Shown piece after piece: positions 7,570 to 64,000 of a DNA stretch of 64,000 nt. How positions within the stretch are numbered: position 1 is the first letter of the stretch; the number at the start of each line of letters is the position of its first letter. The stretch is from Escherichia coli (GTDB lineage: Bacteria > Pseudomonadota > Gammaproteobacteria > Enterobacterales > Enterobacteriaceae): the NCBI RefSeq assembly GCF_036507355.1, contig NZ_AP027877.1; one strand, 5' to 3'. Both the position numbers and the translations under genes were made by a program. The notes below the pieces were generated by a model that was given only the letters and a program-made list of their open reading frames with translations, searched no databases and was not told the origin of the DNA.

Positions 7570-8580
<1,011 letters not shown>

Positions 8581-8682: not shown

Positions 8683-9096
8683 TTAACTGCCACGATAGGT
8701 TGAATACCCATATTGGCTAAGTAATAAAGGCACATGATAATGCTCGTTCACTTTATTAATATGAAATTCAACGGGGATCTCAGGGAAGAAACTTTCAAGA
8801 TTTTGTTTCTTGAAATAGTCCCCGGTTTTAAATACGACACGGTAATCGCCCGTAGTTGCAGTTTGCTCGGGCCACAGTGCCTTAATTCGTCCATCCTTAT
8901 CTGTTTTGGCGGTATTAAGTTGTAACCAGCCGTTGTCCGCTTTCTTTTCAAGAGTGACTGTCACGTCGGCAGCGGGTTTTCCTGTTTGCTGGTTCAAAAT
9001 GTGCACGCTAAGAATGTTTTGTTGTGCAGCATAGACCAAAGAAGGTAATGAAAATGCAGCCGTTACTACGGAGAGTACTAAATAACGCTTTAACAT
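8683..9096 (-). CDS. hiuH: 5-hydroxyisourate hydrolase (transthyretin-like)
   Basis: 137 aa, signal peptide, C-terminal YRGS. Confidence 0.92.
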
Positions 9097-9165
9097 GTTT
9101 ATATCCTTGTCATGTGAATGAGTTTTGAGGATAGCGAAAAAGCGTCCAGGGTAACCTTACAGCAG

Positions 9166-9183
9166 CATTACAATTTTGTAATG
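9166..9183. promoter_or_regulatory. HprR/CusR-type response-regulator box in hiuH-hprR divergent region
   Basis: Inverted repeat CATTACAA-TT-TTGTAATG between divergent hiuH and hprR. Confidence 0.6.
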
Positions 9184-9228
9184 AACCAGGCTGTTTCTAT
9201 AACATATGATTTATGGCATATTATTTTC

Positions 9229-11258: not shown

Positions 11259-11365
11259 CATAGGGCTTCAGTACGCCATAAATTAACCGTGAAAAAACGC
11301 AGCCACGTCGTTAATACTAACGCGGCTGCGATTGATTATGCGCTTACATTAAAACGTAACAGGGA

Positions 11366-12217
11366 TTAACCCGCGTAAGCTGCCAGCATTTCCTGCGCCG
11401 CCAGTTTACCCAACGCATTCGCTGCGAAAGGACTGTCGCCGGTGAGAAGTTTACGGTCCTTATGTACTCGCCCGGTGATGTCGTCATTAATGATGTTCAT
11501 GCCCATTTTCTTCAGTTCTTCGCCGAAGTACCAGGTGAGATGACCCGGCATATAGCCAATCTCTGGCGTTTGTTTGTCTGCGGCGTCTGGGAATGCGCAA
11601 ATGGAATAACCATTCAGTGGGTTATCGCCGTGGCGAAGCGCCAGAAAAGCCGCCGGGCCGTGGCAAAGGGAGATAACAAAACGGTCATTTTTGATTGCCC
11701 ACTGTAAAGCGGCAGCTACGTCCTGGCTTTCAGGTAAACCAATAAGTGCGCCATGACCACCAGGAACAAAGATTGCTGCATATTCGCTATCAGCGTTGAG
11801 GCTGGCGACAACCTCCGCGAGTTTCTTCGGATTGCGGAACAACGATTTATGCTGCTCAAAGAATGGCATTACTTTTTCATCTTTGTGCGGCATAGCCCAG
11901 TATTCAAACTTGGTCATCAGACCGGAAATGGTCGCCACTTCGAATTCGAAACCTGCAGCATGGAGATGATACAACGGCAGCAACGTTTCAATCGGATGGT
12001 TACCGGTCGAGAACAGTTTTCCGTTATCGGTCGGCAAATAACGTTCGTCCGCGGCGATCACCAGAATTTTATGTTTACCGCGATACGGTTTTGGATAGTC
12101 CACGCCATCAAGATCAGAGACAGGACTGGTATATTGGCTAAGCGAATATTCTGAAGGGAAGAATGCATTATCTTCAGCAATATCGACCTGCGGATTTTTA
12201 CTTGTTTGAACAGTCAT
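11366..12217 (-). CDS. hchA: Glyoxalase III / Hsp31 (DJ-1/PfpI family)
   Basis: 283 aa MTVQTSKNPQVD... Confidence 0.93.
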   Translation of the reverse strand: MTVQTSKNPQVDIAEDNAFFPSEYSLSQYTSPVSDLDGVDYPKPYRGKHKILVIAADERYLPTDNGKLFSTGNHPIETLLPLYHLHAAGFEFEVATISGLMTKFEYWAMPHKDEKVMPFFEQHKSLFRNPKKLAEVVASLNADSEYAAIFVPGGHGALIGLPESQDVAAALQWAIKNDRFVISLCHGPAAFLALRHGDNPLNGYSICAFPDAADKQTPEIGYMPGHLTWYFGEELKKMGMNIINDDITGRVHKDRKLLTGDSPFAANALGKLAAQEMLAAYAG

Positions 12218-12808
12218 AGTGTATTCCTTATTGTTGCTTAGTTAGGGTAGTCACTATATTTGCGACTGAGCTGGTCGCTATTTTTAACCAGGCTAGAAAA
12301 TTGAGTCAATATATCGAAAGCGGTAGTCGGCGGGTGTAAGTATGTAATGATGATGCTGCACTGGTGTTGAATATTATTCACGCCAAATTTTCCTTATTGA
12401 GCAACGTCGTCGCAAGTGGCCTCAATGATTTTAGACCATTATCAAAGGTACGGGGCGGCGGGGAGAGATTTAGTGCTGTGGAATATTGTGGTGCTGATGA
12501 ATATTTATATCCAGGATTGGCAGAGAAAAAGCTTTTTTCATGCACTATTTTTGCAAATATTTCTATATGGGAGGCGGTTTTGTTGCAGATTAATTCATAA
12601 AGAAATGCATTTGGGTCTTGGTTTGAAGAGTAGCTGGTTGATGTTATTGTGCCAGGAGGTGCAGGATAAGGGGCTGTATCGATATGCTTTGGCAATTGCG
12701 CGTGCCGCAGAGGGAGATGAAATGCCAATAAAAAAGCCTGAGTTCGATGAGGGACGAACTCAGGCTAGTGTTAAGTTTTACAGTAACACGCCGCAGCGAG
12801 TTGGCTGA

Positions 12809-13996
12809 TTAGAACTGGTAGACTAAGCCCACAGCAACGATATCATCGGTAGCGATGCCGTTTTCTTTGTAGAAGTCGTCGTCGTTGTCCAGCAGGTTGA
12901 TTTTGTAATCAACATAAGTGGACATGTTTTTGTTGAAGTAGTAGGTCATACCAATATCAACATATTTAACCAGATCTTTGTTGGTGTAATGATGATTACC
13001 CTGGCTGTCGAAGTTATCACTATTTACACCGCCTAAATCCTTACCTTTAGATTGCAGGTAAGCGATGGACGGGCGCAGACCGAAGTCGAACTGATACTGA
13101 GCAACAACTTCAAAGTTTTGGGTTTTGTTAGCGATGGCATCAGCATCACCGTAACCAGTCATGTTACGGGTTTCAGCATACATAGCTGCTAAGTAAACGT
13201 TATTAGCGTCGTATTTAGCACCAACGGTCCATGCTTCTGCTGTTTCACCGCCAGCAGTTGCATCGAAGCGATCTCCATAACGAGTGTTATGAGTACCTTT
13301 GTGAACCTGATTGTCGGTACGGTCAGAGTTAGAGTAAGCAGCGCCCAGACTTAAACCAAAGTCAAAGTCATAGGAAGTGGACATACCGTAACCGTCGCCG
13401 TTCTCTTTAGCAAGTTTACGTCCATTACCGTTACCTGAACCTTCTTGATCAAATAATCCGCTTTTCTCGTTGTTACCCTGATACTGGAGTGCAAAGTTCA
13501 GACCATCAACTTGACCAAAGAAACCATTGTTACGATAGGTTGCTACGCTGTTAGCACGACCGTTCATGAAGTTGTCAGCGCCAGCATAGGTATCTCCACC
13601 AAATTCTGGCAGCATATCGGTCCATGCTTCTACGTCATATACGACACCGTAGTTACGACCATAGTCGAAAGTACCATTCTGACCAAAGCCGAAACCTGCA
13701 AATGCCAGACGCGTTGCGGTATTACCCTTGTCGCTTTCAGGACCGTTTGCGCCAATGTTAAATTCCCACTGACCATAACCAGTGAACTGGTCAGCGATCT
13801 GGGTTTCACCTTTGAAACCGATACGGGCATATGACATGTCGCCATCACTGCCAGAGTCATCAGAGAAGTAGTGCAGACCCGCTACTTTTCCGTACAAATC
13901 CAGTTTATTGCCATCTTTATTATAGACTTCAGCCGCATTTGCTGCGCCAGCAACTAATAACGCCGGGACCAGCATTGCCAGAACTTTTCTTTTCAT
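12809..13996 (-). CDS. yedS: OmpC/OmpF-family general porin, apparently intact
   Basis: Signal peptide [21 protein letters not shown], ~395 aa, C-terminal ...GLVYQF. Confidence 0.88.
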
Positions 13997-14307
13997 TATG
14001 TATTCCCTTGTGATTATAATCTTCATGAATATATCAATAAGTGCCGTTATCCAAAAAAAAGCACATTTGGATACTATTCTATGAAGTTCATTTTATTTTA
14101 AAGATTACATGTAACAAATGTATTTAAAAGACTTCAAAATGTTTCTAATCTATTTAATATGATTCATAATTATGAATTCTAAATATAAATATTCATGAAA
14201 ATTATAAGTATATATCAATATGTTATGAGTTGAGCGGAAAGATAGGGAGTATCAATGATTGTTACGCCAAACACCTGGTGTGATCACGCGCACATTAATG
14301 AAGGCAT

Positions 14308-14398
14308 AAAAAAAAGCCGGCATCATGCCGGCCCAAAAAATATAAACAAGACGATAAAAGGCTAATAACGGAAGCATCATGACACAGAATAATAAAAA
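14308..14398 (-). ncRNA. rseX: Candidate small RNA at the RseX locus (yedS-yedR intergenic)
   Basis: Minus-strand intrinsic terminator (hairpin 14316-14332, U8 from the A-run at 14308-14315); locus placement from memory of K-12, sequence identity not verified. Confidence 0.35.
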
Positions 14399-14562
14399 GG
14401 TATAATTGTAATCAGTGCTAATATATTGATTGAATGAATTAATAAAGCCGATATCAAAGATAAATAAAATCGCTCAAAACGATTTTTCCTGTATTCACTG
14501 CCGTTGCGCAAAAATTATCTATTTGTTCAAAAAATGAGTGAGTCTTGACTGGCTCATTCAAT

Positions 14563-14928
14563 GTGGAAAAATGTGACTTTTATCACATAATAGTACTAAG
14601 TCTGAATTTTCCGGGTTATCTCAAAATGGAATACGGTTCGACAAAGATGGAAGAGAGACTCTCTCGCAGCCCTGGCGGCAAACTGGCTTTGTGGGCTTTC
14701 TATACATGGTGTGGCTATTTCGTCTGAGCAATGGCGCGTTACATCTGGGTGATGAGCCGGATCCCCGATGCCCCCGTGTCGGGATTTGAAAGCGATTTAG
14801 GCTCTACCGCGGGAAAGTGGTTAGGGGCACTGGTCGGATTTTTATTTATGGCTCTGGTCGGGGCATTGTTAGGCAGCATTGCCTGGTACACCCGACCTCG
14901 TCCCGCACGTAGCAGACGCTATGAATAA
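14563..14928 (+). pseudogene. yedR: Inner membrane protein YedR interrupted by in-frame TGA
   Basis: ORFs 14545-14727 and 14731-14928 are in one frame separated by TGA at 14725-14727; GTG at 14563 to 14928 gives 121 codons. Confidence 0.6.
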
Positions 14929-14967
14929 AAACTGCTAAGGTTGCGACTCTTTGGCAACGGAGCGCGT

Positions 14968-15663
14968 ATGGACTTACAACACTGGCAGGCACAGTTCGAA
15001 AACTGGTTGAAAAACCATCATCAGCACCAGGACGCGGCCCATGACGTGTGTCATTTTCGCCGCGTCTGGGCTACGGCACAGAAGCTGGCGGCAGATGATG
15101 ACGTCGATATGCTGGTGATTTTAACCGCCTGTTATTTTCACGATATTGTGAGCCTGGCGAAAAATCATCCGCAAAGGCAGCGTTCTTCAATCCTGGCGGC
15201 AGAAGAGACGCGTCGCCTGCTCCGTGAAGAGTTCGTGCAATTTCCGGCGGAGAAAATTGAGGCCGTTTGTCATGCAATTGCCGCTCACAGTTTCAGCGCG
15301 CAAATTGCCCCCTTAACAACGGAAGCTAAAATCGTCCAGGATGCGGATCGGCTGGAAGCCCTGGGAGCGATTGGCCTGGCGCGCGTGTTTGCCGTTTCAG
15401 GGGCATTGGGCGTGGCGCTGTTTGATGGCGAAGATCCGTTCGCACAGCATCGCCCGCTTGATGATAAACGTTACGCGCTGGATCATTTCCAGACTAAGTT
15501 GCTGAAGCTACCGCAAACCATGCAAACCGTAAGAGGCAAGCAGCTGGCGCAGCACAACGCGCAATTTTTAGTCGAGTTTATGGCGAAGCTCAGTGCCGAA
15601 CTGGCGGGGGAGAATGAAGGTGTCGATCACAAGGTGATAGATGCGTTTTCACCTGCGGGCTGA
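14968..15663 (+). CDS. yedJ: HD-domain phosphohydrolase
   Basis: 231 aa [14 protein letters not shown]... with HD motif. Confidence 0.9.
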
Positions 15664-15729
15664 GCGCGTGGCCCTAAATGGCTGTAATTATGTTAACCTG
15701 TCGGCCATCTCAGATGGCCGGTTAAATCT

Positions 15730-17148
15730 ATGCAGGAAAATATATCAGTAACCGATTCATACAGCACCGGGAATGCCGCACAGGCAATGCTGGAGAAACT
15801 GCTGCAAATTTATGATGTTAAAACGCTGGTGGCGCAGCTTAATGGTGTGGGTGAGAATCACTGGAGCGCGGCAATTTTAAAACGTGCGCTGGCGAATGAC
15901 TCGGCATGGCACCGTTTAAGTGAGAAAGAGTTCGCCCATCTGCAAACGTTGTTACCCAAACCACCGGCACATCATCCGCATTATGCGTTTCGCTTTATCG
16001 ATCTATTTGCCGGAATTGGCGGTATCCGTCGCGGTTTTGAATCGATTGGCGGACAGTGCGTGTTTACCAGCGAATGGAACAAACATGCGGTACGCACTTA
16101 TAAAGCCAACCATTATTGCGACCCGGCGACGCATCATTTTAATGAAGATATCCGCGACATCACCCTCAGCCATAAAGAAGGCGTGAGTGATGAGGCGGCG
16201 GCGGAACATATTCGTCAACACATTCCTGAACACGATGTTTTACTGGCCGGTTTCCCTTGTCAGCCATTTTCGCTGGCTGGCGTATCGAAAAAGAACTCGC
16301 TCGGGCGGGCGCACGGTTTTGCCTGCGATACTCAGGGCACGCTGTTCTTTGATGTGGTGCGCATTATCGACGCGCGTCATCCGGCGATGTTTGTGCTCGA
16401 AAACGTCAAAAACCTGAAAAGCCACGACCAGGGTAAAACGTTCCGCATCATCATGCAGACGCTGGACGAACTGGGCTATGACGTGGCTGATGCAGAAGAT
16501 AACGGGCCGGACGATCCGAAAATCATCGATGGTAAACATTTTCTGCCGCAGCACCGTGAACGCATCGTGCTGGTGGGTTTTCGTCGCGATCTTAATCTGA
16601 AAGCCGATTTTACTCTGCGTGATATCAGCGAATGTTTCCCTGCACAGCGAGTGACGCTGGCGCAGCTGCTGGACCCGATGGTCGAGGCGAAATATATCCT
16701 GACGCCGGTGCTGTGGAAGTACCTCTATCGTTATGCGAAAAAACATCAGGCGCGCGGTAACGGCTTCGGTTATGGAATGGTTTATCCGAACAATCCGCAA
16801 AGCGTCACGCGTACGCTGTCTGCGCGTTATTACAAAGATGGCGCGGAAATTTTAATCGATCGCGGCTGGGATATGGCCACGGGTGAGAAAGACTTTGACG
16901 ATCCGCTGAATCAGCAACATCGTCCACGTCGGTTAACGCCTCGGGAATGCGCGCGCTTAATGGGTTTTGAAGCGCCGGGAGAAGCGAAATTCCGCATTCC
17001 GGTTTCGGACACTCAGGCCTATCGCCAGTTCGGTAACTCGGTGGTCGTGCCGGTCTTTGCCGCGGTGGCAAAACTGCTTGAGCCAAAAATCAAACAGGCG
17101 GTGGCGTTGCGTCAGCAAGAGGCACAACATGGCCGACGTTCACGATAA
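15730..17148 (+). CDS. dcm: DNA-cytosine C5 methyltransferase Dcm
   Basis: 472 aa with FAGIGG and PCQ motifs. Confidence 0.95.
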
Positions 17149-17599
17149 GGCCACTCGCAGCAAAAATATGCGCGCGATTGCCACGCGTGATACGGCGATT
17201 GAGAAGCGCCTCGCCAGTCTGTTAACCGGGCAGGGCCTGGCGTTTCGCGTTCAGGACGCCAGTCTGCCCGGACGCCCGGATTTTGTCGTTGATGAATATC
17301 GCTGCGTGATATTTACCCATGGCTGCTTCTGGCATCATCATCACTGCTATCTGTTTAAAGTGCCTGCGACTCGAAGCGAGTTCTGGCTGGAGAAGATAGG
17401 TAAAAATGTTGAGCGCGATCGCCGCGATATCAGTCGCTTGCAGGAACTCGGCTGGCGCGTATTGATTGTCTGGGAGTGCGCGTTACGTGGGCGCGAGAAG
17501 CTGACGGATGAAGCGCTTACCGAGCGTCTGGAAGAGTGGATCTGCGGCGAAGGTGCCAGCGCGCAGATCGACACGCAGGGGATACATTTACTCGCTTGA
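17129..17599 (+). CDS. vsr: Very-short-patch repair endonuclease Vsr
   Basis: 156 aa [16 protein letters not shown]...; start overlaps the dcm 3' end in another frame. Confidence 0.93.
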
Positions 17600-18508
17600 T
17601 GCGTCCTGAATAACTGGCGCAACTACGGGTTTTGCCGGGAAGAGATATTTTCCCAACGTGACCAGTACCACCGCGAAGACAATTACGCCGAGCGCCAGCC
17701 ATTCAATCTTCGACAGCGTCTCTCCGCCCAGTCCCGTACCCAGCAAGACCGCGACCACCGGGTTAACGTAGGCGTAGCTGGTGGCGAGAGCCGGACTGAC
17801 ATTACGGATTAAATACATATAAGCGTTGATGGCGATAATCGAACCAAACAGCGCCAGATAGCCGACCGCAAGGAAGCCTGAAAGGGAAGGGAGCGCCGTC
17901 AGTTTTTCACCCGCAATCATCGACGCGATCATTAACACCACGCCTGCCGCCAGCATCTCAATCGCACCCGCCATCATCCCTACAGGTAAGGTAATGCGCG
18001 AGCCATAAACTGAGCCAAACGCCCAGCTAATCGAGCCGATTAAAATCAGAATCGCGCCCCACGGATTGCCGCTTAAATTTCCACCGCTATTGAGCATGAT
18101 GATTCCGGCAAGCCCAATGGCAATACCCACCCATTCCAGTTTGCGCGTTTTAATGCCAAACAGGCGGCTGAAGCACAGGGTAAAGAGGGGCACGGTTGCA
18201 ACCACTACGGCGGCGATGCCGGAAGGAACATTTTGATGTTCGGCAACCGTCACCATGCCATTACCGACAGCCAGCAATAACAGGCCAATCAGCGCGGCAT
18301 TGAGCAGCGGACGTAGCGGGGGGAGTTTGTGTCCGCGCAGTAGCAAAAATGCCAGCAATAAAATACCGGCTACCAGGAATCGAACGCCCGCCATCATTAA
18401 CGGAGGCCAGCTTTCCACGCCAATCCGAATGACAAAATAGGTTGAGCCCCAAATGATATACAACGCAAACAGCGCGCCAAAAAGCGGTAACAACTGGCGG
18501 AAACGCAT
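17588..18508 (-). CDS. yedA: EamA/DMT-family transporter
   Basis: 306 aa, ten predicted TM helices. Confidence 0.9.
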   Translation of the reverse strand: MRFRQLLPLFGALFALYIIWGSTYFVIRIGVESWPPLMMAGVRFLVAGILLLAFLLLRGHKLPPLRPLLNAALIGLLLLAVGNGMVTVAEHQNVPSGIAAVVVATVPLFTLCFSRLFGIKTRKLEWVGIAIGLAGIIMLNSGGNLSGNPWGAILILIGSISWAFGSVYGSRITLPVGMMAGAIEMLAAGVVLMIASMIAGEKLTALPSLSGFLAVGYLALFGSIIAINAYMYLIRNVSPALATSYAYVNPVVAVLLGTGLGGETLSKIEWLALGVIVFAVVLVTLGKYLFPAKPVVAPVIQDASSE

Positions 18509-18680
18509 AATCCCTCACGGTGGAAATAAAAAGGTGGTTCATAGTAAACGTGAAAATCATTCTGCTGGCGAGAGATATAATTGCACTTGATTGTTAAAAA
18601 AATGTTGACCTGTGAAGCAAGTATCAGAGCTGCCGTTTTTGCTTCATACTTACACCCTTCAACAATAAAAATGAGAGGGA

Positions 18681-19598
18681 ATGCTTTTGGCCGGGAGTAG
18701 TTTACTGACGTTGCTCGATGATATCGCCACACTGCTGGACGATATCTCCGTGATGGGCAAACTGGCGGCGAAGAAAACCGCCGGTGTATTAGGGGATGAC
18801 TTATCGCTCAATGCGCAACAAGTTTCAGGCGTGCGGGCCAACCGGGAACTTCCCGTGGTCTGGGGCGTGGCGAAAGGATCGCTGATTAATAAAGTGATTC
18901 TGGTGCCACTGGCGCTGATCATCAGTGCGTTTATCCCGTGGGCGATTACGCCTCTGTTGATGATTGGTGGCGCGTTTCTCTGCTTTGAAGGGGTAGAGAA
19001 AGTGCTGCATATGCTGGAGGCGCGTAAACATAAAGAAGATCCGGCGCAGAGTCAGCAGCGTCTGGAGAAGCTGGCGGCGCAGGATCCGCTGAAGTTTGAA
19101 AAGGACAAAATAAAAGGGGCGATTCGTACCGATTTTATATTGTCTGCCGAAATCGTCGCCATCACGCTGGGGATTGTGGCCGAAGCGCCGTTGCTTAATC
19201 AGGTGCTGGTGCTTTCAGGCATCGCGCTGGTAGTGACCGTGGGCGTCTACGGTCTGGTAGGGGTTATCGTTAAGATTGATGACCTGGGGTATTGGCTGGC
19301 GGAAAAATCCAGCGCGCTGATGCAGGCATTAGGTAAAGGGTTATTGATTATCGCGCCCTGGCTGATGAAAGCGTTATCGATTGTCGGCACGCTGGCGATG
19401 TTCCTCGTCGGCGGCGGGATTGTGGTACATGGTATTGCGCCGCTGCATCACGCCATTGAACATTTCGCCGGGCAGCAAAGTGCAGTGGTGGCGATGATAT
19501 TACCGACTGTTTTAAATCTGATTCTTGGATTTATCATCGGCGGCATCGTGGTGCTGGGAGTGAAAGCCGTAGCGAAAATGCGCGGTCAGGCACATTAA
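18681..19598 (+). CDS. yedI: DUF808 inner membrane protein
   Basis: 305 aa. Confidence 0.88.
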
Positions 19599-19676
19599 TA
19601 CTCGCACAGGCTATTATGCAAAATTCGCCATCTTCAACTAAGGTGAACAAGTTTCACTCGAAAAAAGGAGGCGAGT

Positions 19677-19859
19677 ATGAGCTTTATGGTTAGTGAGGAA
19701 GTTACGGTTAAAGAGGGCGGCCCGCGGATGATTGTCACTGGATACTCCAGCGGTATGGTTGAGTGTCGTTGGTATGACGGTTACGGGGTCAAGCGGGAAG
19801 CTTTTCATGAAACCGAGCTTGTTCCGGGGGAGGGGAGTCGTTCTGCGGAAGAAGTTTGA
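19677..19859 (+). CDS. yodC: Small protein YodC
   Basis: 60 aa, good RBS AAAGGAGG. Confidence 0.8.
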   Translation: MSFMVSEEVTVKEGGPRMIVTGYSSGMVECRWYDGYGVKREAFHETELVPGEGSRSAEEV

Positions 19860-19875
19860 AAGGGAATCATTAACG

Positions 19876-19900
19876 CCAGGCCGGATCACATCCGGCCTGG
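19876..19900. repeat. Perfect 10-bp stem hairpin (REP-like) after yodC
   Basis: CCAGGCCGGA-TCACA-TCCGGCCTGG; no U tract. Confidence 0.45.
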
Positions 19901-20029
19901 TGTGCCAATGCCTGAAATGAATGATAGTCGCGTCTTATCATGCCACCATTATAAAATTATCGCTGTTTTGCGGTACGCTATCGCCAGGTTATGCCAGAAT
20001 CATAAAAAAGCAGGTGGGGAGTCGTCAGG

Positions 20030-54185: not shown

Positions 54186-54842
54186 TTGATCAACGTTCTA
54201 CTTGTTGATGACCACGAACTGGTGCGCGCAGGGATACGACGCATTCTGGAAGATATAAAGGGTATAAAAGTCGTCGGTGAGGCATCGTGCGGTGAAGACG
54301 CCGTTAAGTGGTGCCGGGCAAATGCCGTTGACGTGGTGCTAATGGACATGAGTATGCCGGGCATTGGCGGTCTTGAGGCGACGCGTAAAATCGCGCGTTC
54401 CACAGCTGATGTCAAAATCATCATGCTTACCGTCCATACAGAAAACCCTTTACCAGCGAAAGTCATGCAGGCCGGTGCTGCGGGCTACCTCAGCAAAGGC
54501 GCGGCACCGCAGGAAGTCGTGAGTGCGATCCGTTCTGTCTATTCAGGGCAGCGTTACATTGCTTCTGACATCGCTCAACAAATGGCGTTAAGCCAGATCG
54601 AACCAGAAAAAACAGAAAGCCCATTTGCCAGTTTGTCTGAACGTGAATTGCAGATTATGCTGATGATCACCAAGGGCCAGAAGGTCAATGAGATCTCAGA
54701 ACAGCTCAATCTCAGTCCGAAAACGGTGAACAGCTACCGCTATCGTATGTTCAGTAAACTAAACATTCATGGCGATGTTGAGCTGACTCACCTGGCAATT
54801 CGCCATGGTCTGTGTAATGCGGAGACATTATCAAGTCAGTGA
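54186..54842 (+). CDS. uvrY: Response regulator UvrY (BarA partner)
   Basis: 218 aa [16 protein letters not shown] start; LuxR-type HTH. Confidence 0.93.
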
Positions 54843-56671
54843 GTGATCAGTTTGACGCAAAAGCGTTTTTAAAAACCGTAACCAGCCAGCCAGGCGTTTA
54901 TCGCATGTACGATGCTGGTGGTACGGTTATCTATGTCGGCAAAGCGAAAGACCTGAAAAAACGGCTTTCCAGCTATTTCCGTAGCAACCTCGCTTCGCGC
55001 AAAACCGAAGCGCTGGTCGCCCAGATCCAGCAAATTGATGTAACGGTTACTCATACAGAAACCGAAGCGCTGTTGCTGGAACACAACTACATCAAACTCT
55101 ATCAGCCGCGTTACAACGTTTTGCTACGCGATGATAAATCATATCCTTTTATCTTCCTGAGTGGCGATACCCACCCGCGTCTGGCGATGCATCGTGGTGC
55201 GAAGCATGCCAAAGGTGAATATTTCGGCCCGTTCCCGAATGGCTATGCCGTACGTGAAACACTGGCGCTACTGCAAAAGATTTTCCCCATTCGCCAGTGC
55301 GAAAATAGTGTTTATCGCAATCGCTCGCGTCCGTGTCTGCAATATCAGATAGGGCGCTGTCTGGGACCGTGCGTTGAAGGACTGGTGAGTGAAGAAGAAT
55401 ACGCTCAGCAGGTCGAGTATGTGCGCCTGTTTTTGTCTGGCAAAGATGATCAGGTGCTTACGCAACTGATTAGCCGTATGGAAACTGCCAGTCAGAATCT
55501 GGAGTTTGAAGAAGCGGCACGTATTCGCGACCAAATTCAGGCGGTGCGACGCGTCACCGAAAAACAGTTTGTGTCCAATACCGGCGACGACCTTGACGTT
55601 ATTGGTGTGGCGTTCGATGCGGGCATGGCTTGTGTCCACGTATTGTTCATTCGTCAGGGCAAAGTGCTCGGCAGCCGCAGCTATTTCCCGAAAGTGCCTG
55701 GCGGTACGGAACTGAACGAGGTGGTGGAAACCTTCGTAGGACAGTTCTATTTACAAGGCAGCCAGATGCGCACCTTACCGGGTGAGATCCTGCTCGATTT
55801 TAATCTTAGCGATAAAACGCTGCTCGCCGATTCCCTTTCAGAACTGGCGGGACGCAAGATTAATGTTCAAACCAAACCTCGTGGCGATAGGGCGCGTTAC
55901 CTGAAACTCGCGCGCACCAATGCGGCGACGGCCTTAACCAGCAAACTTTCGCAGCAATCTACCGTTCACCAGCGGCTTACAGCACTTGCCAGCGTGTTGA
56001 AATTGCCGGAAGTGAAGCGGATGGAGTGCTTTGACATCAGCCATACCATGGGTGAACAAACCGTCGCTTCCTGTGTGGTGTTTGATGCTAACGGCCCGCT
56101 GCGTGCGGAGTATCGGCGCTATAACATTACTGGCATCACGCCGGGCGATGATTATGCGGCGATGAATCAGGTGCTGCGTCGGCGTTATGGTAAAGCCATC
56201 GACGACAGTAAGATCCCGGATGTGATACTTATCGACGGCGGCAAAGGCCAGCTTGCGCAGGCGAAAAATGTCTTCGCCGAACTGGATGTCTCATGGGATA
56301 AAAATCATCCGCTGCTACTTGGCGTTGCCAAAGGAGCAGATCGTAAGGCTGGGCTGGAAACGCTGTTCTTTGAGCCGGAAGGTGAGGGATTCAGTTTGCC
56401 GCCAGATTCTCCCGCGCTGCATGTTATCCAGCATATTCGCGATGAATCACACGATCACGCGATTGGCGGGCACCGTAAAAAACGGGCGAAGGTCAAAAAT
56501 ACCAGTTCCCTGGAAACCATTGAAGGCGTCGGGCCAAAACGCCGGCAAATGTTGTTGAAATATATGGGCGGTTTGCAAGGTTTACGTAACGCCAGCGTCG
56601 AGGAAATTGCAAAAGTGCCGGGTATTTCGCAAGGTCTGGCAGAAAAGATCTTCTGGTCGTTGAAACATTGA
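54839..56671 (+). CDS. uvrC: Excinuclease ABC subunit C
   Basis: 610 aa, GTG start, GIY-YIG N-terminus. Confidence 0.95.
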
Positions 56672-56727: not shown

Positions 56728-57276
56728 ATGCAATTTAATATCCCTACGTTGCTTACACTGTTCCGTGTCATCCTTATCCCATTCTTTGTATTGGTCTTTT
56801 ATCTGCCTGTCACCTGGTCGCCGTTTGCCGCCGCGCTCATTTTCTGCGTCGCGGCGGTGACTGACTGGTTCGATGGTTTTCTGGCACGCCGCTGGAACCA
56901 GAGTACCCGGTTTGGTGCTTTCCTTGACCCTGTAGCAGATAAAGTTCTCGTGGCTATCGCCATGGTGCTGGTAACCGAGCATTACCACAGCTGGTGGGTG
57001 ACCTTACCGGCGGCAACGATGATCGCCCGTGAAATTATTATTTCTGCGCTACGCGAATGGATGGCGGAGTTGGGTAAACGCAGTAGCGTGGCTGTCTCCT
57101 GGATTGGGAAAGTGAAAACCACTGCCCAGATGGTGGCGCTGGCATGGCTGCTGTGGCGTCCGAACATTTGGGTTGAGTACGCCGGTATTGCACTTTTCTT
57201 TGTGGCTGCGGTACTGACTCTGTGGTCAATGTTGCAATATTTGAGCGCTGCGCGTGCAGATTTGCTTGATCAGTGA
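56728..57276 (+). CDS. pgsA: CDP-diacylglycerol--glycerol-3-phosphate 3-phosphatidyltransferase
   Basis: 182 aa. Confidence 0.93.
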
Positions 57277-57427: not shown

Positions 57428-57503
<76 letters not shown>

Positions 57504-57557
57504 GTTTAAAAGACATCGGCCTCAAGCGGATGTCTGGCTGAAAGGCCTGAAGAATTT

Positions 57558-57631
57558 GGCGCGTTAACAAAGCGGTTATGTAGCGGATTGCAAATCCGTC
57601 TAGTCCGGTTCGACTCCGGAACGCGCCTCCA
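57558..57631 (+). tRNA. cysT: tRNA-Cys (GCA)
   Basis: 74 nt GGCGCGTTAACAAAGCGG...GCGCCTCCA. Confidence 0.95.
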
Positions 57632-57643
57632 ATTTCTTCCCGA

Positions 57644-57730
57644 GCCCGGATGGTGGAATCGGTAGACACAAGGGATTTAAAATCCCTCGGCGTTCGCGCT
57701 GTGCGGGTTCAAGTCCCGCTCCGGGTACCA
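57644..57730 (+). tRNA. leuZ: tRNA-Leu (TAA)
   Basis: 87 nt GCCCGGATGGTGGAATCGG...GGGTACCA. Confidence 0.95.
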
Positions 57731-57772
57731 TGGGAAACATCAGAATAATCAAAGCAATAAGCAGTGTCGTGA

Positions 57773-57796
57773 AACCACCTTCGGGTGGTTTTTTTG
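57773..57796 (+). terminator. Rho-independent terminator of the glyW-cysT-leuZ operon
   Basis: AACCACC-TTCG-GGTGGTT followed by T7. Confidence 0.85.
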
Positions 57797-57969
57797 TGCA
57801 TGCAATTCACGCCCTGTGCATATCCTGTGCTCACGGGGTGCAATGAGCTGCAATCTTCAGCCTGGCAATGCCGAATCGAACGTGTCGCTTCCAGCATAGA
57901 GAACCAGGCCGCTTTGCCTGTTTTCCGGTACGCTTCCGGGAAGGGGGCCGCTGAGCAAGCTGTAATGCT

Positions 57970-58709
57970 CTAGCCACCCTGAGTACAAAGTTGCTTAATT
58001 CGTGCAATCACCTCATCTCTGTACTTCTGGTGTCCGCGCATAGCCCTTGGATGGGCAATTCTGAAACAGATTGCATTACCTGTTTTGAACTCCCATAGCT
58101 TCCCCGGAATGACTGCAGAAGTCTCATAGCCGCCCAGCTCAGTAAGCACCTGTTTTATGATGTAGTCTGTTCTCCGGGCTCCAGATGCAAAGATGATGAA
58201 ATCAGGCTCAAGGTGTTTAATTTGTACCGCCAGCAGCTTCAGCGAGGCAATATAACTTCCTGCACTTCATTTTGAGGGCGATTGAGAGGGGTCAGTCCGT
58301 CGTAATCCCACGCCAGTAGATTGGCATACACGATAGCCTGAGGAGGGATATTAAGCTCCCGGGCCAGCCTGAAATGATACTGCGTGAAGCGGCTACGTGA
58401 TTTGAGGTTAGTGGTGCCATAATTTTGTACCGGAAGATGTTTCCTGTAACGATCTACAGCTTCTTCAACCACCTGCCCGATGGTGACGTCAGGTATAAGT
58501 CCCAACACCCGTGATATCGTATTCTTACCATTCAGAGTATTCCAGCCAGCGGTTTCACGTCCAACCAGCATGATTTTTACCGGTGAGTGCCAGTATTCTT
58601 CAAAGGGCACGGGTAAAAAGACGCCTGAGTATTTATCCTCATTCAGGTTAAATGACTGGGCGTCAACTTCCTGCAATATCCGTTTGTACGCGTCTAATAG
58701 CTTTTCCAT
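57970..58709 (-). pseudogene. Hypothetical protein with uracil-DNA-glycosylase-superfamily-like motifs, split by a frameshift
   Basis: 156-codon ORF (58239-58709) continues in another frame for ~89 codons to TAG at 57970-57972; frames overlap at ~58242-58268; motifs KIMLVGRETAGW and IAHPRAMRG resemble UDG motifs A and B. Confidence 0.55.
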
Positions 58710-58789
58710 TCTTCAATCCTGCCCCGTAATAAAAACACCTTCAGATATATATTATCTCCATGATATCAATCAGATACATGAGGATAATT

Positions 58790-59989
58790 ATGCAAAAATC
58801 CTTCCGGTTTACCAATGCATCCATCAAAGCCCTACCTGCAAATACTGATACCCGCTCTACAGAGCTTGAGGTATCTGATACCGAAGTTATTGGACTCAAG
58901 TGCCTCTCAGGTCGAACAGGCAACAAGCGCTTCCTTCTGCGGTATACATTCCACGGTACCAAAAAAAGTATCAGTATTGGCAGATTTCCTGAAATTGATG
59001 TGGGAACAGCCCGGCAAATAGCCCGTCGTCACAAAGAAGCGATTGCGCTGGGAAATGACCCTAAAGCGGAGCGAGATAACTACCGCGCGATGCCAACACT
59101 TGGTGAGTTTTTCCATCAAACCTATGTTCCTTATATAAAGCGCCATAAAAAGTCATGGGATAAGGATGTTCAGCGTTTCACGCAATACATTGAACCTCGT
59201 CTGGGAAAGATACGTTACTGCGATCTCAGGGCCAGAGAGATACAACAGGTGCTGTTTGACATGCTGGAGGGGCGTATTCACGGGCAGCAATATGCGCCGT
59301 CTACCTGTAACAGAGCCCTTGCTATTCTGAAAACGATGGGGCGTTATGCGTTGCGACAGGATGTGCTGGAAAAGAATGAAGCCGATAAGATCCCTTTGCT
59401 GAAAGAGAATAATCAGCGGACGCGCTTTTTTGATGCTGATGAGATCAGGCGCATTCTTGACGCTGCTACCCAATATCCCAACAAAGCTGCCGGGGGATTG
59501 ATAGCCATGTTGTTGTTAACCGGTACACGCAAATCAGAAATGCTTAATGTCAGGCATGAACATATCGACCGGGCCAATCGTACTCTGTTCATTCCTTATA
59601 CAAAAAATGGTCGCAGTCGGACGGTATATCTAAGCGATGCCGCATTATCGATTATTGATGCTATCCCACGAGTTGGCAGTAATCCGTATCTGTTCGCCAT
59701 TAAGGATAATGGAAAACCGATATCGGAACCCCGATGGGCATATGAAAAAATACTGGCACAGTGCGGTATAGACAAGAATGAAGTCTGTTTTCACACCACA
59801 CGTCATTCTGTTGCCTCTTTACTGGTTTCGAGTGGTCAATTCAGCCTGTATGACGTTAAAGCCCAACTGGCGCATGCCAGTATTCAGAGTACAGAACGTT
59901 ACGCGAAATTAACACCGGAACGTATGCGTCAGACAGGGCAGGGAGTGACTGACCTGCTTCTGAATACTGCGGCTACGAAGCAGATGTGA
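58790..59989 (+). CDS. int: Tyrosine recombinase / phage integrase (P4-type), island integrase next to leuZ
   Basis: ~399 aa from ATG 58790 with RBS GAGGA; C-terminal catalytic region HTTRHS...ERYAKL. Confidence 0.88.
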   Translation: MQKSFRFTNASIKALPANTDTRSTELEVSDTEVIGLKCLSGRTGNKRFLLRYTFHGTKKSISIGRFPEIDVGTARQIARRHKEAIALGNDPKAERDNYRAMPTLGEFFHQTYVPYIKRHKKSWDKDVQRFTQYIEPRLGKIRYCDLRAREIQQVLFDMLEGRIHGQQYAPSTCNRALAILKTMGRYALRQDVLEKNEADKIPLLKENNQRTRFFDADEIRRILDAATQYPNKAAGGLIAMLLLTGTRKSEMLNVRHEHIDRANRTLFIPYTKNGRSRTVYLSDAALSIIDAIPRVGSNPYLFAIKDNGKPISEPRWAYEKILAQCGIDKNEVCFHTTRHSVASLLVSSGQFSLYDVKAQLAHASIQSTERYAKLTPERMRQTGQGVTDLLLNTAATKQM

Positions 59990-60019
59990 CTACTTTTTAG
60001 CAAACTATAAATATGGAGA

Positions 60020-60262
60020 ATGAGGATGCATTTAAAATGCCCACAGTGTGGCAGTTGTAATACATTGATAAGTTCAGCAGGAAAACTGCCATCGATAACC
60101 GATAATAAACGCTCTGGGTATATTAGCCTGGAGTTTTTACCTGAAATACTGAAAGAAATTATTAAGGCTATTAAAAAACTATTTGGATTCCTTGAACAGT
60201 GTGAAAGGAATAATGCTCCAGTGCTTATCTGTATGGACTGTGGGTATTATGAAAGAATTTAA
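60020..60262 (+). CDS. Small zinc-ribbon protein (CxxC...CxxC), hypothetical
   Basis: 80 aa with CPQCGSC and CMDCGY; followed by its own terminator. Confidence 0.55.
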   Translation: MRMHLKCPQCGSCNTLISSAGKLPSITDNKRSGYISLEFLPEILKEIIKAIKKLFGFLEQCERNNAPVLICMDCGYYERI

Positions 60263-60310
60263 ATAGAAAACCAATAACTGTAAATAATAGTTATGCGGAT
60301 GTATAAAAAC

Positions 60311-60339
60311 CCCGATACGTTAATCGTATCGGGTTTTTT
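60311..60339 (+). terminator. Rho-independent terminator separating the zinc-ribbon gene from the three-gene cluster
   Basis: CCCGATACG-TTAAT-CGTATCGGG followed by T6, A-run upstream. Confidence 0.8.
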
Positions 60340-60357
60340 GTTTATGAGGATCATTCA

Positions 60358-60729
60358 ATGAAATTTGTCTCGAACTGGCAAGACCTGCCGTCGCTCCTTC
60401 TTCCGGAGTCAGTAATGAGTCTGTTGAAAACAGAGCTGGTACTCCCATTTGAAGATGAATACTCTGCAATGAGTTTCTGGGATGAAGTCGGGGTGACATT
60501 AATATATGTCGAGCCCGATGATGTACCTGAAGATATTAAAGCGCAGGTATTAAATGTGATTCATCAGTTAATTGCAAATCCAGAATTTGTAGTCCGTCTG
60601 ACAGATGACTATTACCTGATGCTTTCTGTTACGGAAGATAACGGGAACGGTATTTATCTGTTATTTCACCCCGATTGCCCTCTGAAGGGTATTGATTTAT
60701 TAGTTTCTATGGCCGAATCACGCTATTAA
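60358..60729 (+). CDS. Hypothetical acidic protein (123 aa)
   Basis: RBS GAGGA; highly acidic; AT-rich codon usage unlike the flanking core genes. Confidence 0.6.
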   Translation: MKFVSNWQDLPSLLLPESVMSLLKTELVLPFEDEYSAMSFWDEVGVTLIYVEPDDVPEDIKAQVLNVIHQLIANPEFVVRLTDDYYLMLSVTEDNGNGIYLLFHPDCPLKGIDLLVSMAESRY

Positions 60730-60754
60730 ACACAAGCAAAACCAGGAACACAAA

Positions 60755-61288
60755 ATGAGTAAATCAAAATTAGTTAAAAATAATGTTGAGTCAGTTTCGA
60801 AGGAGATTAAAAATGAGGCAGAGGTTATTCATGAAAATCTCAGTGCAGATGAACAAACATTATCTGATGTAAAAGACTATCAGTTGCTCATTGAAACAGG
60901 TCAGGCAGAAAAAATCAGTCCTAAGGCAAGTGGTATGCTGACATGGCAACTGGCGATATCAGAGGTGGACAATGAACTTTATCTTCGTCTGGTGGCAAAT
61001 GGCTGTGGAGGGTTGTTCTCTAAGGACTGGATCTCACTTTCAAAGATTGCATCTGTTCTGGAAACACAACCTGCTACCGGCTTCTCATCCGGAGTATTCA
61101 GGCCGCTATTCAAAGGGGCAAGCACCAACAATGCAGGTTTTCTGGCTGCAGTTTTACGCTCCCCGGATATATGTCTGCTGGAGGCACATCCAGAGAAGTT
61201 ATTTACTCATGTATTATACCCGGACTGGAGGGAGCGGTTGAATAAACTTAATACGATTAGTAGCCAGGAAAAGATTACAGAGGATTAA
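60755..61288 (+). CDS. Hypothetical protein (177 aa)
   Basis: RBS AGGA; 25-nt gap from upstream gene, suggesting co-transcription. Confidence 0.6.
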   Translation: MSKSKLVKNNVESVSKEIKNEAEVIHENLSADEQTLSDVKDYQLLIETGQAEKISPKASGMLTWQLAISEVDNELYLRLVANGCGGLFSKDWISLSKIASVLETQPATGFSSGVFRPLFKGASTNNAGFLAAVLRSPDICLLEAHPEKLFTHVLYPDWRERLNKLNTISSQEKITED

Positions 61289-61360
61289 TTTATTTCCTGC
61301 ACTGTTATACAACCAGAAATCACCACACACCACTATTTACTTTCTAAAGGAAAATTTATT

Positions 61361-61795
61361 ATGCAAACCCAATATGCCTTAAAACAGGCAGGATTAACTC
61401 TGCCTGTTACTAAAGAATTTCAGCAGCATATTACTACGCTTCTGGCAAATCGGGTTTTACAAAAAATAACTGAGGCAGTGGTTATTAATTTCCGTGATCC
61501 GGACTACAGTGCAGAATCCGGCGGATTTCATCCGGTTGAAATGCGATTCATCCGTCAGGATAACGAATGGTATTTCGATTATGTCACAGACTTTAGTTAC
61601 ATGGGACGAGTCTACCCGGAACTGGAAAAAGAAATTGATTTTTGCTGGTCGGGGAATTATGTCTTCCATTATCTGGCTGGGGATATTTCACTGGCGGCAG
61701 AGAGGAATGAACTCTGGTCCTTATGGGAGGGTAATTTTATGGATTACCTGTCTATGGGGATTTACCGGGTAACGGTAACTGTGGAAAGTTGTTGA
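61361..61795 (+). CDS. Hypothetical protein (144 aa)
   Basis: RBS AAGGA; Trp/Tyr/Phe-rich. Confidence 0.6.
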   Translation: MQTQYALKQAGLTLPVTKEFQQHITTLLANRVLQKITEAVVINFRDPDYSAESGGFHPVEMRFIRQDNEWYFDYVTDFSYMGRVYPELEKEIDFCWSGNYVFHYLAGDISLAAERNELWSLWEGNFMDYLSMGIYRVTVTVESC

Positions 61796-62096
61796 CCCGT
61801 TATGAACAGGAAGAAAGCGGGCGGCTTTGTAATCTACTGCATGTGGCGTGCATCACAGCATGGAGATGATGTCTCTTTTTCCTGGCTGTTCGCATAAACA
61901 AGTGCAGACACGGGGGATCTCAGATCCCTCGTGATTTTTGCCCCCTATGGTGCATTCTCCAGTAGCAGGGTGATAACGGTTAATCCATTACCCCAACGAC
62001 AGTATTACACCGGTAATAAATGTTCATGAATACAGTTAGTTATGTGGGTTTTGAGGTGGGCTATGTCATCGTTGACGATAACTGAAGGTTTTACAG

Positions 62097-62324
62097 ATGT
62101 ATAAAACTCGCGGTGAAAGGATCGCAGAAAGGCTGTGCTGGATATTACTTCAACTGTATACCGGTAATACGGTATCGGTTAATGATATATGTCAGCGTTT
62201 CGCGGTCAGTCGCCGAACCGGACAGCGTGATTTGTTGAGAGTTGAAACTGTAACGGAAACTATTTCACCTGGAAGGGTAAGGCTGGCAAATTTGATAAGG
62301 GAACGAGTTAGACGAAATTTTTAA
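62097..62324 (+). CDS. HTH DNA-binding protein, possibly a truncated regulator
   Basis: 75 aa; helix-turn-helix-like segment VSVNDICQRFAVSRRTGQRDL. Confidence 0.45.
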   Translation: MYKTRGERIAERLCWILLQLYTGNTVSVNDICQRFAVSRRTGQRDLLRVETVTETISPGRVRLANLIRERVRRNF

Positions 62325-62546
62325 TCGAATCCATATCAATTCTATAAAATATGAAAATTAACGGGAGTAAATATACACTCCCGTTATAATGCAACCTTTT
62401 TTTAACTACTCAAATGATATTAATTTAGGTGCGACAGTGTTTTTATGACATGTTAAATTCGCAAGATCAATAATATCATGAAACAATTTTAGGTAATGCT
62501 GCCAACTTACTGATTTAGTGTATGATGGTGATTTTAAGGTGCTTGC

Positions 62547-62822
62547 GTGGCTTCCATTTCCATCAGATGTCCTTCCTGCTACGCTACTGAAGGCGTGGTG
62601 CGTAACGGCAAAAGCACTGCCGGACATCAGCGCTATCTCTGCTCTCATTACCGTAAAACATGGCAACTACAGTTCACTTACACCGCCTCTCAGCCCGGTA
62701 CGCACCAGAAAATCATTGATATGGCCATGAATGGCGTCGGATGTCGCGCCAGTGCACGCATTATGGGCGTTGGCCTCAACACGGTTTTACGTCACTTAAA
62801 AAACTCAGGCCGCAGTCGGTAA
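62547..62822 (+). CDS. insA: IS1 InsA
   Basis: 91 aa [23 protein letters not shown]... Confidence 0.92.
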
Positions 62823-62848
62823 CCTAGCGCATACAACCGGGCGGTGAT

Positions 62849-63244
62849 GTGATTGTCTGCGCTGAAATGGACGAACAGCGGGGTTACGTCGGCGCTAAAT
62901 CACGCCAGCGCTGGTTGTTTTACGCGTATGACAGGATTCGGAGGACGGTTGTGGCGCACGTATTCGGTGAACGCACTCTGGCCACACTGGAGCGTCTTCT
63001 GAGCCTGCTGTCGGCCTTTGAGGTCGTGGTATGGATGACGGATGGCTGGCCGCTGTATGAATCCCGCCTGAAGGGAAAGCTGCACGTTATCAGCAAGCGT
63101 TACACTCAGCGCATTGAGCGACATAATCTGAATCTGAGACAACATCTGGCAAGGCTGGGACGGAAGTCACTGTCGTTCTCAAAATCGGTGGAGCTGCATG
63201 ACAAGGTCATCGGGCATTATCTGAACATAAAACACTATCAGTAA
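62849..63244 (+). CDS. insB: IS1 InsB (expressed as InsAB' by -1 frameshift)
   Basis: Frame open upstream of the first ATG. Confidence 0.9.
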
Positions 63245-63435
63245 GTTGGAGTCATTACCTGTTTTTGCTGCATATTTGGCCATGCACTTTTGCCATCAAG
63301 TCAGAGAGACAGGGGCACCGTAAGAGACGAAGGTTGCTGCCTGTGATGAGAGGTTATCAGCAATTACAATGGTCACTAATATTTACATAATGTCGGAGAA
63401 CATCATTTTAGTTGAAATAATATAAAGGCGGTTCT

Positions 63436-63762: not shown

Positions 63763-64000
63763 TTAAGCCCCCAACTTCTGTTAAAGGAGTTGGGGGAGAT
63801 TTAACGGTTATCAGACTGGAAGACAGAATGTCGGATATTTACGGGCTATGATATCCATCAGTGACTTCATTCGCGGTGTTACAGAACTAAATTTCATTTG
63901 GGGTATTTTTGCTCTTACCGCATTTTTTACATCAGTCACCGTTACTGAATAGCCTTCTGACGTCAGCCATTCAGCAACCTCTTTACAGGAATAACTTTTT

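Follow-up and report, generated by a model that had tools for sequence, protein, structure and literature searches.

What element do the small genes just downstream of an integrase gene in this stretch of Escherichia coli DNA belong to, and what might they do for it? The stretch (64,000 nucleotides of contig NZ_AP027877.1; hereafter the window) carries four open reading frames (ORFs), ORF1 to ORF4, between positions 60,020 and 61,795. An initial annotation had taken them for cargo and had read them, speculatively, as a small defence, anti-defence or toxin-immunity system. These genes prove to lie in the conserved core, next to the integrase, of an E. coli pipolin located at tRNA-Leu downstream of pgsA. 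The layout of this core is integrase, ORF1, a terminator, the apparent operon ORF2-ORF3-ORF4, a second terminator and a small helix-turn-helix (HTH) regulator; farther along come the piPolB gene, the genes for a second integrase and its excisionase, and variable cargo, for example type I restriction-modification. The element has already been described in the literature, and the copy here is near-identical to those in hundreds of E. coli genomes. For the window the outcome is a correction: the element is a known one and its genes are core, not cargo. The features on which the argument rests are as follows (aa, amino acids).

57644..57730, + strand: tRNA-Leu(taa), last of a Gly-Cys-Leu cluster and the element's integration site (ARAGORN; same layout in related E. 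coli in RefSeq)
58760..59989 (RefSeq start, 58790), + strand: tyrosine recombinase, the integrase beside the integration site (NCBIfam; "site-specific integrase" in RefSeq)
60020..60262, + strand: ORF1, 80-aa split zinc-ribbon protein with invariant Cys (phrog_32727, E 1e-57)
60311..60339, + strand: intrinsic terminator between ORF1 and ORF2, with a conserved stem (terminator scan, −19.1 kcal/mol)
60358..60729, + strand: ORF2, 123-aa acidic alpha/beta protein, the first "orphan" core gene (conserved N-terminus; AlphaFold2 model)
60755..61288, + strand: ORF3, 177 aa, the second "orphan" core gene and anchor of the module
61361..61795, + strand: ORF4, 144-aa DUF2787 protein (PF10980; PDB relatives 2W56 and 2V1L)
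61909..61940, + strand: intrinsic terminator closing the ORF2-ORF4 operon (terminator scan, −21.9 kcal/mol)
62097..62324, + strand: HTH protein of 75 aa, like the N-terminal HTH of WYL/DeoR-type regulators (PADLOC WYL model, E 1e-4)
63811..64000, − strand: 3′ end of the piPolB gene, the pipolin hallmark, which continues past the window end (profile match)

The integrase-proximal core of an E. coli pipolin

The host side of the junction is E. coli chromosome, with uvrC (54839-56671) and pgsA (56728-57276) followed by a cluster of tRNA-Gly, tRNA-Cys and tRNA-Leu(taa) genes at 57428-57730 (ARAGORN). The element begins directly past tRNA-Leu(taa), as it does in all E. coli loci examined. Its integrase matched XerC/XerD tyrosine recombinase families in NCBIfam, every match lying under the curated cut-offs. 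The pipolin literature terms this enzyme IntSXT-type (PMC11551731), and the subfamily assignment is taken from that paper.

Pipolins are integrative elements with a gene for piPolB, a family-B DNA polymerase that is primer-independent, and this element has one. A 42-aa ORF at 63811-63939 on the − strand matched the piPolB profile (E 5e-16), the 3′ end of the gene being the part that lies within the window. The complete DNA polymerase, of 866 aa, is encoded 3.4 kb from ORF3 in a locus (L001) that is 99.9% identical to that of the window. Beyond the core, three related E. coli genomes encode an 866-aa DNA polymerase, a 212-aa protein and an HTH excisionase-like protein, together with a second tyrosine recombinase and a type I restriction-modification system.

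According to published work, piPolB, IntSXT, IntP2, DUF2787 and two orphan proteins make up the core of enterobacterial pipolins, and a WYL regulator is found close to it. The core is reported to lie by the integration site and not to be exchanged with other mobile elements; the proposal is that it maintains the element, the distal module being exchangeable defence cargo (PMC11551731). The window presents the gammaproteobacterial set, namely a recombinase, the two orphans (ORF2 and ORF3), DUF2787 and a WYL-type HTH gene, in an order that is identical in 11 Enterobacterales loci. The HTH gene follows the module in 23 loci of our survey (neighbour cluster 4), and RefSeq labels it "DeoR family transcriptional regulator" in one related E. 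coli genome (E8, locus L066). Because the published work puts the core near the integration site and exchangeable cargo distally, we assign the genes to the core; both that work and the synteny survey described below contradict the label of cargo, since the genes are conserved and not exchanged.

Conservation in other genomes, on which the initial annotation had staked its reading, was found. Among 5,426 complete E. coli genomes, 349 carry a 1.9-kb block, on the chromosome every time, and the ORFs are under purifying selection. The piPolB allele of the window is present in 295 E. coli genomes. Some of the difference between 349 and 295 may come from polymerases that have diverged too far for megablast to match; genome E8, which has the block, also has an annotated B-family polymerase.

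A conserved operon anchored by an unnamed protein family

Neighbourhoods of ORF3 were compared across 60 loci, of which 50 came from a scan of 100,044 species genomes with a 31-sequence ORF3 alignment and nine from E. coli similarity or exact-protein look-up, the last being the window itself. ORFs were then called and profiles iterated locally. The fetched flanks extended up to 8-10 kb on each side and were often shorter, and this bounds all flank counts given here. Loci from the scan fell in the Gammaproteobacteria (Enterobacterales, Vibrionales, Aeromonadales, Alteromonadales, Oceanospirillales, Methylococcales and Chromatiales) and the Betaproteobacteria (Massilia, Janthinobacterium, Zoogloea and others). 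A tyrosine integrase was in the flank of the ORF3 homologue in 55 of the 60 loci, the nearest full-length copy usually being 0.1-0.9 kb and at most 6.5 kb away. DUF2787 lay directly downstream of ORF3 in 35/60 and an ORF2 homologue directly upstream in 32/60; piPolB was in the flank in 11/60. Unbiased clustering of all neighbour ORFs gave the same ranking as the profile counts: integrase, DUF2787, ORF2. Three other neighbour clusters found beside ORF3 (c27, c28 and c159) proved unrelated to ORF1-ORF4. The survey of homologous neighbourhoods that the initial annotation had called for has in this way revealed conserved co-occurrence.

Gene order was integrase-ORF1-ORF2-ORF3-ORF4 in Enterobacterales, integrase-ORF2-ORF3-ORF4 in Vibrio, ORF2-ORF3-(ORF4)-integrase in Oceanospirillales and a metagenome contig, and ORF3-ORF4-integrase in Aeromonas. 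In loci lacking ORF1, a glycine-zipper peptide of 60-72 aa often precedes ORF2. The target tRNA varies by lineage (Leu, Phe, Asn or Met), and order and integrase linkage hold down to about 30% identity. The ORF3 family had no match in 50,697 phage records and matched 2 of 72,556 plasmids. On one of these plasmids ORF3 adjoins DUF2787 and an integrase; on the other, from Pseudomonas, a VapE gene lies 0.9 kb and an integrase 2.9 kb downstream of ORF3. As a set the operon genes keep together, are not found on other classes of mobile element apart from these two plasmids, and resemble no known defence model.

All four ORFs are on the + strand, with intergenic gaps of 25 nucleotides (nt) between ORF2 and ORF3 and 72 nt between ORF3 and ORF4. 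Purine-rich ribosome-binding sites precede ORF2, ORF3 and ORF4 (gagga, aggaa and aaggaaa, respectively). The G+C fraction was 0.376 for 60001-61000 and 0.35-0.43 for the ORFs, against about 0.52 in uvrC and pgsA. In these respects (ORFs, gaps, first terminator, low G+C and ribosome-binding sites) the initial annotation proved accurate. Pairwise ratios of nonsynonymous to synonymous substitution rates (dN/dS) among seven Enterobacterales versions were 0.18, 0.19, 0.16 and 0.17 for ORF1 to ORF4, indicating that all four are protein-coding and under purifying selection. ORF2-ORF4 look like one operon because they are co-oriented and close together, are flanked by two conserved terminators and keep their order in distant genomes. 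The frames overlap in some lineages (ORF2′ and ORF3′ by 8 nt, ORF3 and DUF2787 by 4 nt), which suggests translational coupling and further upholds the operon proposed at first. In E. coli, insertion sequences (IS) sit between genes or at gene ends.

Both terminators consist of a G+C-rich hairpin and a T-run and are conserved in relatives, consistent with predicted rho-independent termination. The first (60311-60339) reads CCCGATACG-loop-CGTATCGGG followed by the T-run, and ends 18 nt before the ORF2 start codon. Its stem is the same in all seven distinct Enterobacterales versions, whereas variation occurs in the loop and the flanks. The second (61909-61940), absent from the initial annotation, is conserved in eight Enterobacterales versions.

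The operon-end hairpin (AGACACGGGGGATCTCAGATCCCTCG, 61906-61931) is identical at 21 of 26 positions to 57664-57689 of tRNA-Leu, in its D-arm and anticodon-arm part. The tRNA-Leu-like hairpin is kept in all Enterobacterales versions, and its likeness could be chance or an old remnant of a tRNA or attachment (att) site. An internal att site at this hairpin was considered and not adopted; the tRNA match stops short of the tRNA 3′ end.

The promoter scan listed none for ORF2-ORF4 between ORF1 and ORF2. A −10-like TATAAA with a preceding TG (60300-60311), which the scan did not list, abuts the 5′ arm of the ORF1-ORF2 terminator, and TATAAA-like motifs likewise occur in other versions of this region. 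Speculatively, transcripts starting at this TATAAA without the full 5′ arm would escape termination and could drive ORF2-ORF4. A search for operator-like repeats in 57600-62500 returned only short, chance-level repeats.

ORF3 matched nothing in Pfam, NCBIfam or PADLOC, nor in the PDB by sequence or profile search; searches of PHROGs returned only families of "unknown function". It is nonetheless far from alone. A profile search of 1.84 billion cluster representatives yielded 1,172 clusters at E<=1e-3 and 574 at E<=1e-10, clusters being counted at 50% identity. The family has a disordered, variable N-terminal tail and a conserved core of about 130 residues. Near-invariant positions are K53, N82, G85-G86, S89, S123, N125-N126, F129, A132 and L134, with R135 present in 81%, and they include the motif S-x-N-N-A-G-F-L-A-A-V-L-R. 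The AlphaFold model of ORF3, built from a 140-sequence alignment, had a mean predicted local distance difference test score (pLDDT) of 84.7, exceeding 90 in the core. It comprises a three-stranded sheet (42-82), a helix-helix-helix-hairpin unit (95-154) and a C-terminal helix, and so contains the three-helix bundle with beta-hairpin wing that characterizes winged helices. The fold is accordingly modelled as winged-helix-like, and such a domain could bind protein as plausibly as DNA. ORF3 has no sequence relationship to MarR/ArsR/Fur-type regulators, TubR or kleisin winged-helix domains, and it differs from known winged-helix proteins in its extra N-terminal three-stranded sheet and disordered tail. 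In three loci (L047, L056 and L058), a RadC-like JAB-domain protein, identified by eye from its HNHPSG motif, lies upstream of ORF3.

ORF2 is strongly acidic, as had been noted at first, with an isoelectric point (pI) of 4.05 and a net charge of −15 over 123 aa; its homologues range from pI 4.1 to 5.2. Some records give a 104-aa protein; we consider the 123-aa start correct because the N-terminal 19 residues are conserved. The AlphaFold2 model is alpha/beta with a pLDDT of 87, and it is the single one of five models that good. We found no Pfam, NCBIfam or PADLOC family match, no PDB match by sequence or profile search, and no solved-fold match for the model. Word-index searches recovered homologues in Enterobacterales only, down to 46% identity; profile iteration on the fetched loci extended the reach to Vibrio, Photobacterium, Oceanospirillales and one metagenome contig. 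A Foldseek search of AFDB50 returned uncharacterised relatives, including proteins from Vibrio, Yersinia and Aeromonas, with template modelling (TM) scores of 0.8-0.9 at 25-33% identity. One of these carries the label "SMI1/KNR4 family" and one "DUF3630", which we treat as a lead only. None of 19 diverse ORF2 family members matched the Pfam SMI1_KNR4 or DUF3630 families, and neither a profile nor a solved structure links ORF2 to the SUKH / SMI1-KNR4 superfamily. Its strong negative charge is that of a DNA mimic; a sequence or fold relationship to a known mimic (Ocr, ArdA and similar) was not found.

The position of ORF2 is not occupied by the same protein everywhere. The 174-aa protein in the ORF2 slot of Aeromonas was tried as a remote homologue and rejected (hhalign probability 2%); it is unrelated to ORF2 and about equally acidic (pI 4.5). 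In Methylococcales and Zoogloea an acidic protein is coupled downstream of ORF3 rather than upstream, with overlapping frames (L036, L041, L043, L057 and L058). Its hhalign probability against ORF2 was 74%, and it is a probable remote ORF2 homologue.

ORF4 matched PF10980 at E 2.4e-39 over model positions 2-126 of 126, a full-length member of DUF2787. The initial statement that no gene of the three had a motif assignable to a known family thus stands for ORF2 and ORF3, which lack any Pfam, NCBIfam or PADLOC family, and fails for the 144-aa protein. The latter is acidic and, as noted at first, aromatic-rich (16%). Solved relatives are 2W56 (VC0508 of the Vibrio cholerae island VSP-II; E 1e-26) and 2V1L (E 2e-24). 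VC0508 aligns with ORF4 residues 13-137 and shares the motifs NFRDxxYSAxxGGFHPVE and YPELE, and both ORF4 and the V. cholerae DUF2787 proteins reside within integrase-bearing genomic islands. The genes vc0504 to vc0508 are reported solely as up-regulated in a zur mutant (PMC8248653).

ORF1 has the motif CPxCG...CxxCG, and none of its four Cys varies among 11 Enterobacterales loci, bearing out the double-CxxC zinc ribbon first proposed. Among the survey loci it was found only in Enterobacterales (11 of 60). It is probably co-transcribed with the integrase gene, from which it is separated by a 30-nt gap. In every RefSeq E. coli record examined ORF1 is unannotated, despite its conservation and PHROG family. 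Searches of NCBIfam and PADLOC gave no match for it.

The function of the trio and its alternatives

What might the operon do? We consider it about an even call that ORF2, ORF3 and DUF2787 have a function of the following general class: a module for maintenance or regulation of the element that acts together with the neighbouring integrase. The three proteins would cooperate, probably as a complex, for the element rather than the host. ORF3 would be the binding hub for nucleic acid or for the recombinase, and its two acidic partners, ORF2 and ORF4, would modulate it. Together with the tyrosine integrase the module would control integration or excision, or would see to maintenance and regulation of the element once excised. 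On this reading it would be no defence payload open to exchange. Support comes from the integrase linkage, the order kept across changes of target tRNA, the lack of ORF3 matches in the phage records and the near-absence of ORF3 from plasmids.

Several points weigh against such a role. The ties of the trio to recombination, regulation and maintenance rest on neither experiment nor homology. Between the integrase gene and the operon stands a strong terminator, and the scan found no convincing promoter. In ORF3, helix 3, the putative recognition helix (NNAGFLAAVLR), is largely hydrophobic, and the winged-helix region has a median net charge of 0 over 140 homologues. Mirror-tree comparisons of ORF3 with integrase, ORF2 and ORF4 gave high Pearson coefficients for all and low or mixed Spearman coefficients, and did not discriminate. 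Finally, the module sits in islands rich in defence genes, and DUF2787 genes belong to a Vibrio gene-association cluster in a phage-infectivity study (PMC12409351).

These last two points bear on the alternative that the operon is a small defence or anti-defence system, with ORF2 or DUF2787 acting as a DNA mimic or nuclease inhibitor, or with the set sensing phage, which we regard as unlikely. The acidity of ORF2, of DUF2787 (pI 4.7) and of the Aeromonas protein in the ORF2 slot would suit it. So would the setting, with type I restriction-modification, GmrSD, PDC-type candidate systems and WYL-type regulators beside the module. Immunity proteins make up the SMI1/KNR4 superfamily whose name one structural relative of ORF2 bears; the label is a lead only, and no ORF2 family member matches Pfam SMI1_KNR4. 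Besides two DUF2787 genes, the Vibrio cluster includes those for an integrase, an LRAT-family protein and RNase HI, and is listed alongside clusters carrying predicted defence systems (PMC12409351). Yet ORF1-ORF4 gave no PADLOC match (PADLOC-DB 2.0), the downstream HTH gene alone matching, to the WYL model, and the genes are classed as non-recombining core without homologues in distant mobile elements (PMC11551731). The lack of a phage match for ORF3 and its scarcity on plasmids would be unusual for shuffled defence or anti-defence genes, and a gene order and integrase linkage that persist to about 30% identity are unlike those of shuffled defence cassettes. The defence or anti-defence reading of the initial annotation was not borne out by the PADLOC, phage and plasmid searches.

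Two further roles would also place the module in the service of the element. Support of excised-element replication, with ORF3 as an origin-binding or loader-like factor for piPolB or a replicative helicase, seems to us quite improbable. A gene for self-replication is often in the ORF3 flank: piPolB in 11 loci, a Cch-like helicase in 17 (DUF927; NF047345 at E 1e-20, under its cut-off) and VapE on the Pseudomonas plasmid. Winged-helix domains are common in replication initiators, and the literature covered assigns no initiator to pipolins. However, the module usually adjoins the integrase and not the polymerase or helicase, and helix 3 of ORF3 is hydrophobic and its core neutral. The block occurs in 349 E. 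coli genomes against 295 for the piPolB allele, a difference that divergent polymerases may explain in part, and a Neptunomonas locus with ORF2, ORF3 and integrase by rpoD has no replicase in its 8-kb flanks. A toxin-antitoxin-like addiction or stabilisation system that penalises island loss would fit a compact array of small genes at an island edge. In Vibrio, Aeromonas and Oceanospirillales the first gene of the array encodes a glycine-zipper membrane peptide of 60-72 aa, in Enterobacterales the zinc ribbon. An acidic protein next to a winged-helix-like one also resembles some antitoxin-regulator pairs. No known toxin or antitoxin family was matched in Pfam, NCBIfam or PADLOC (the Pfam scan covering ORF2-ORF4), a frameshifted ORF3 in Citrobacter koseri (L025) coexists with intact ORF2 and ORF4, and E. 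coli tolerates IS elements that separate the operon genes. We judge addiction to be very improbable.

The module could extend beyond pipolins. The ORF3 family with an acidic ORF2-like partner, and often DUF2787, might constitute an unnamed integrase-coupled module that marks a superfamily of tRNA-integrating scaffold islands of Gamma- and Betaproteobacteria, pipolins being only the piPolB-bearing branch of these islands and the module supplying a new accessory function of tyrosine recombinases; we hold this generalisation to be doubtful. If true, roles such as directionality control, selection of targets or partners, or hitch-hiking on a helper would come into view, and the module could explain how elements without transfer genes move between genera.

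Related islands and comparison with known systems

Two more features of the window lie outside the module.

57970..58709, − strand: frameshifted remnant of a conserved 246-aa element gene, between tRNA and integrase (RefSeq, PHROGs)
62492..63259, + strand: IS1 insertion (insA/insB), not part of the module (left inverted repeat 62492-62514; InsA and InsB ORFs)

Within the remnant, the ORF at 58239-58709 matched phrog_29550 over positions 1-154 of 293. The 246-aa gene is a frameshifted pseudogene in L001 (RefSeq) and is intact in two other loci (L066 and L067). The right end of IS1, 63259, was estimated from its canonical length of 768 bp. From annotation coordinates, without alignment, this IS1 appears to be about 300 bp off the IS1 position in L001, and the two copies may be independent insertions into one short stretch from the HTH gene to piPolB. 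A conserved 108-aa ORF lies between IS1 and the piPolB 3′ end.

A second type of island emerged in Edwardsiella, Enterobacter, Kluyvera and others (L002, L007, L008, L016-L021 and L023; locus positions about 4000-20000). Where a tRNA was found (L002 and L007) it was tRNA-Phe. These islands have two integrases and a divergent ORF2-ORF3-DUF2787 trio followed by an LRAT-family gene, with a Cch-like replicative helicase (DUF927) nearby. In most of them HTH/WYL-type regulators, an MsyB-like acidic protein and type I restriction-modification or GmrSD come next. No piPolB was found within flanks of up to 10 kb.

Two single loci are compact. In Aeromonas allosaccharophila (L042, 2230-15702) a pipolin of about 13.3 kb lies between two tRNA-Asn copies. 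It carries genes for the acidic 174-aa protein, ORF3, DUF2787, integrase and piPolB, together with PDC-S33 and PDC-M40B candidate defence genes, an H-NS-like gene and a glycine-zipper peptide, and would serve well as a minimal model element. Between host rpoD and tRNA-Met, the Neptunomonas locus mentioned above (N. qingdaonensis, L032, 6617-10104) has genes for a glycine-zipper peptide, ORF2, ORF3 and integrase and nothing more; a type I restriction-modification system is on the far side of the tRNA. The stretch may be a mini-element some 3.4 kb long or else a remnant; no att repeats were found around it.

Polymerase and recombinases aside, the genes of the ORF1-ORF4 region are the only conserved ones of pipolins. 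The role of ORF2-ORF3-DUF2787 offers the most direct route to how defence-carrying islands are kept, regulated and moved. In the survey flanks the ORF3 family is tightly linked to tyrosine recombinases well beyond pipolins, and a function for this 177-aa family, which has no Pfam entry, would annotate many integrase-adjacent genes together.

How does the locus compare with systems already described? GMT islands and the P. aeruginosa cDHS, which are given as pipolin analogues (PMC11551731), have a common architecture with it: a small conserved core by a recombinase, plus a variable defence arsenal. Their core genes differ from those found here, and the GmtY recombinase model matched the window integrase only at E 0.008. 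The closest system is the gammaproteobacterial pipolin core itself (Mateo-Caceres and Redrejo-Rodriguez, NAR 2024, PMC11551731), which agrees with the window in element type, host species, tRNA-Leu site and the set and order of genes beside the integrase, and likewise has piPolB, a second integrase and an excisionase downstream. Nothing essential differs, and the window is an instance of that module. To this known core our analysis adds the following: 1) the 177-aa orphan is one member of a family that spans 1,172 clusters and has a winged-helix-like core; 2) the family reaches Betaproteobacteria, as well as islands with a Cch-like helicase and no piPolB in the flanks fetched; and 3) the zinc-ribbon ORF1, unannotated in the RefSeq records examined, is a fourth conserved gene.

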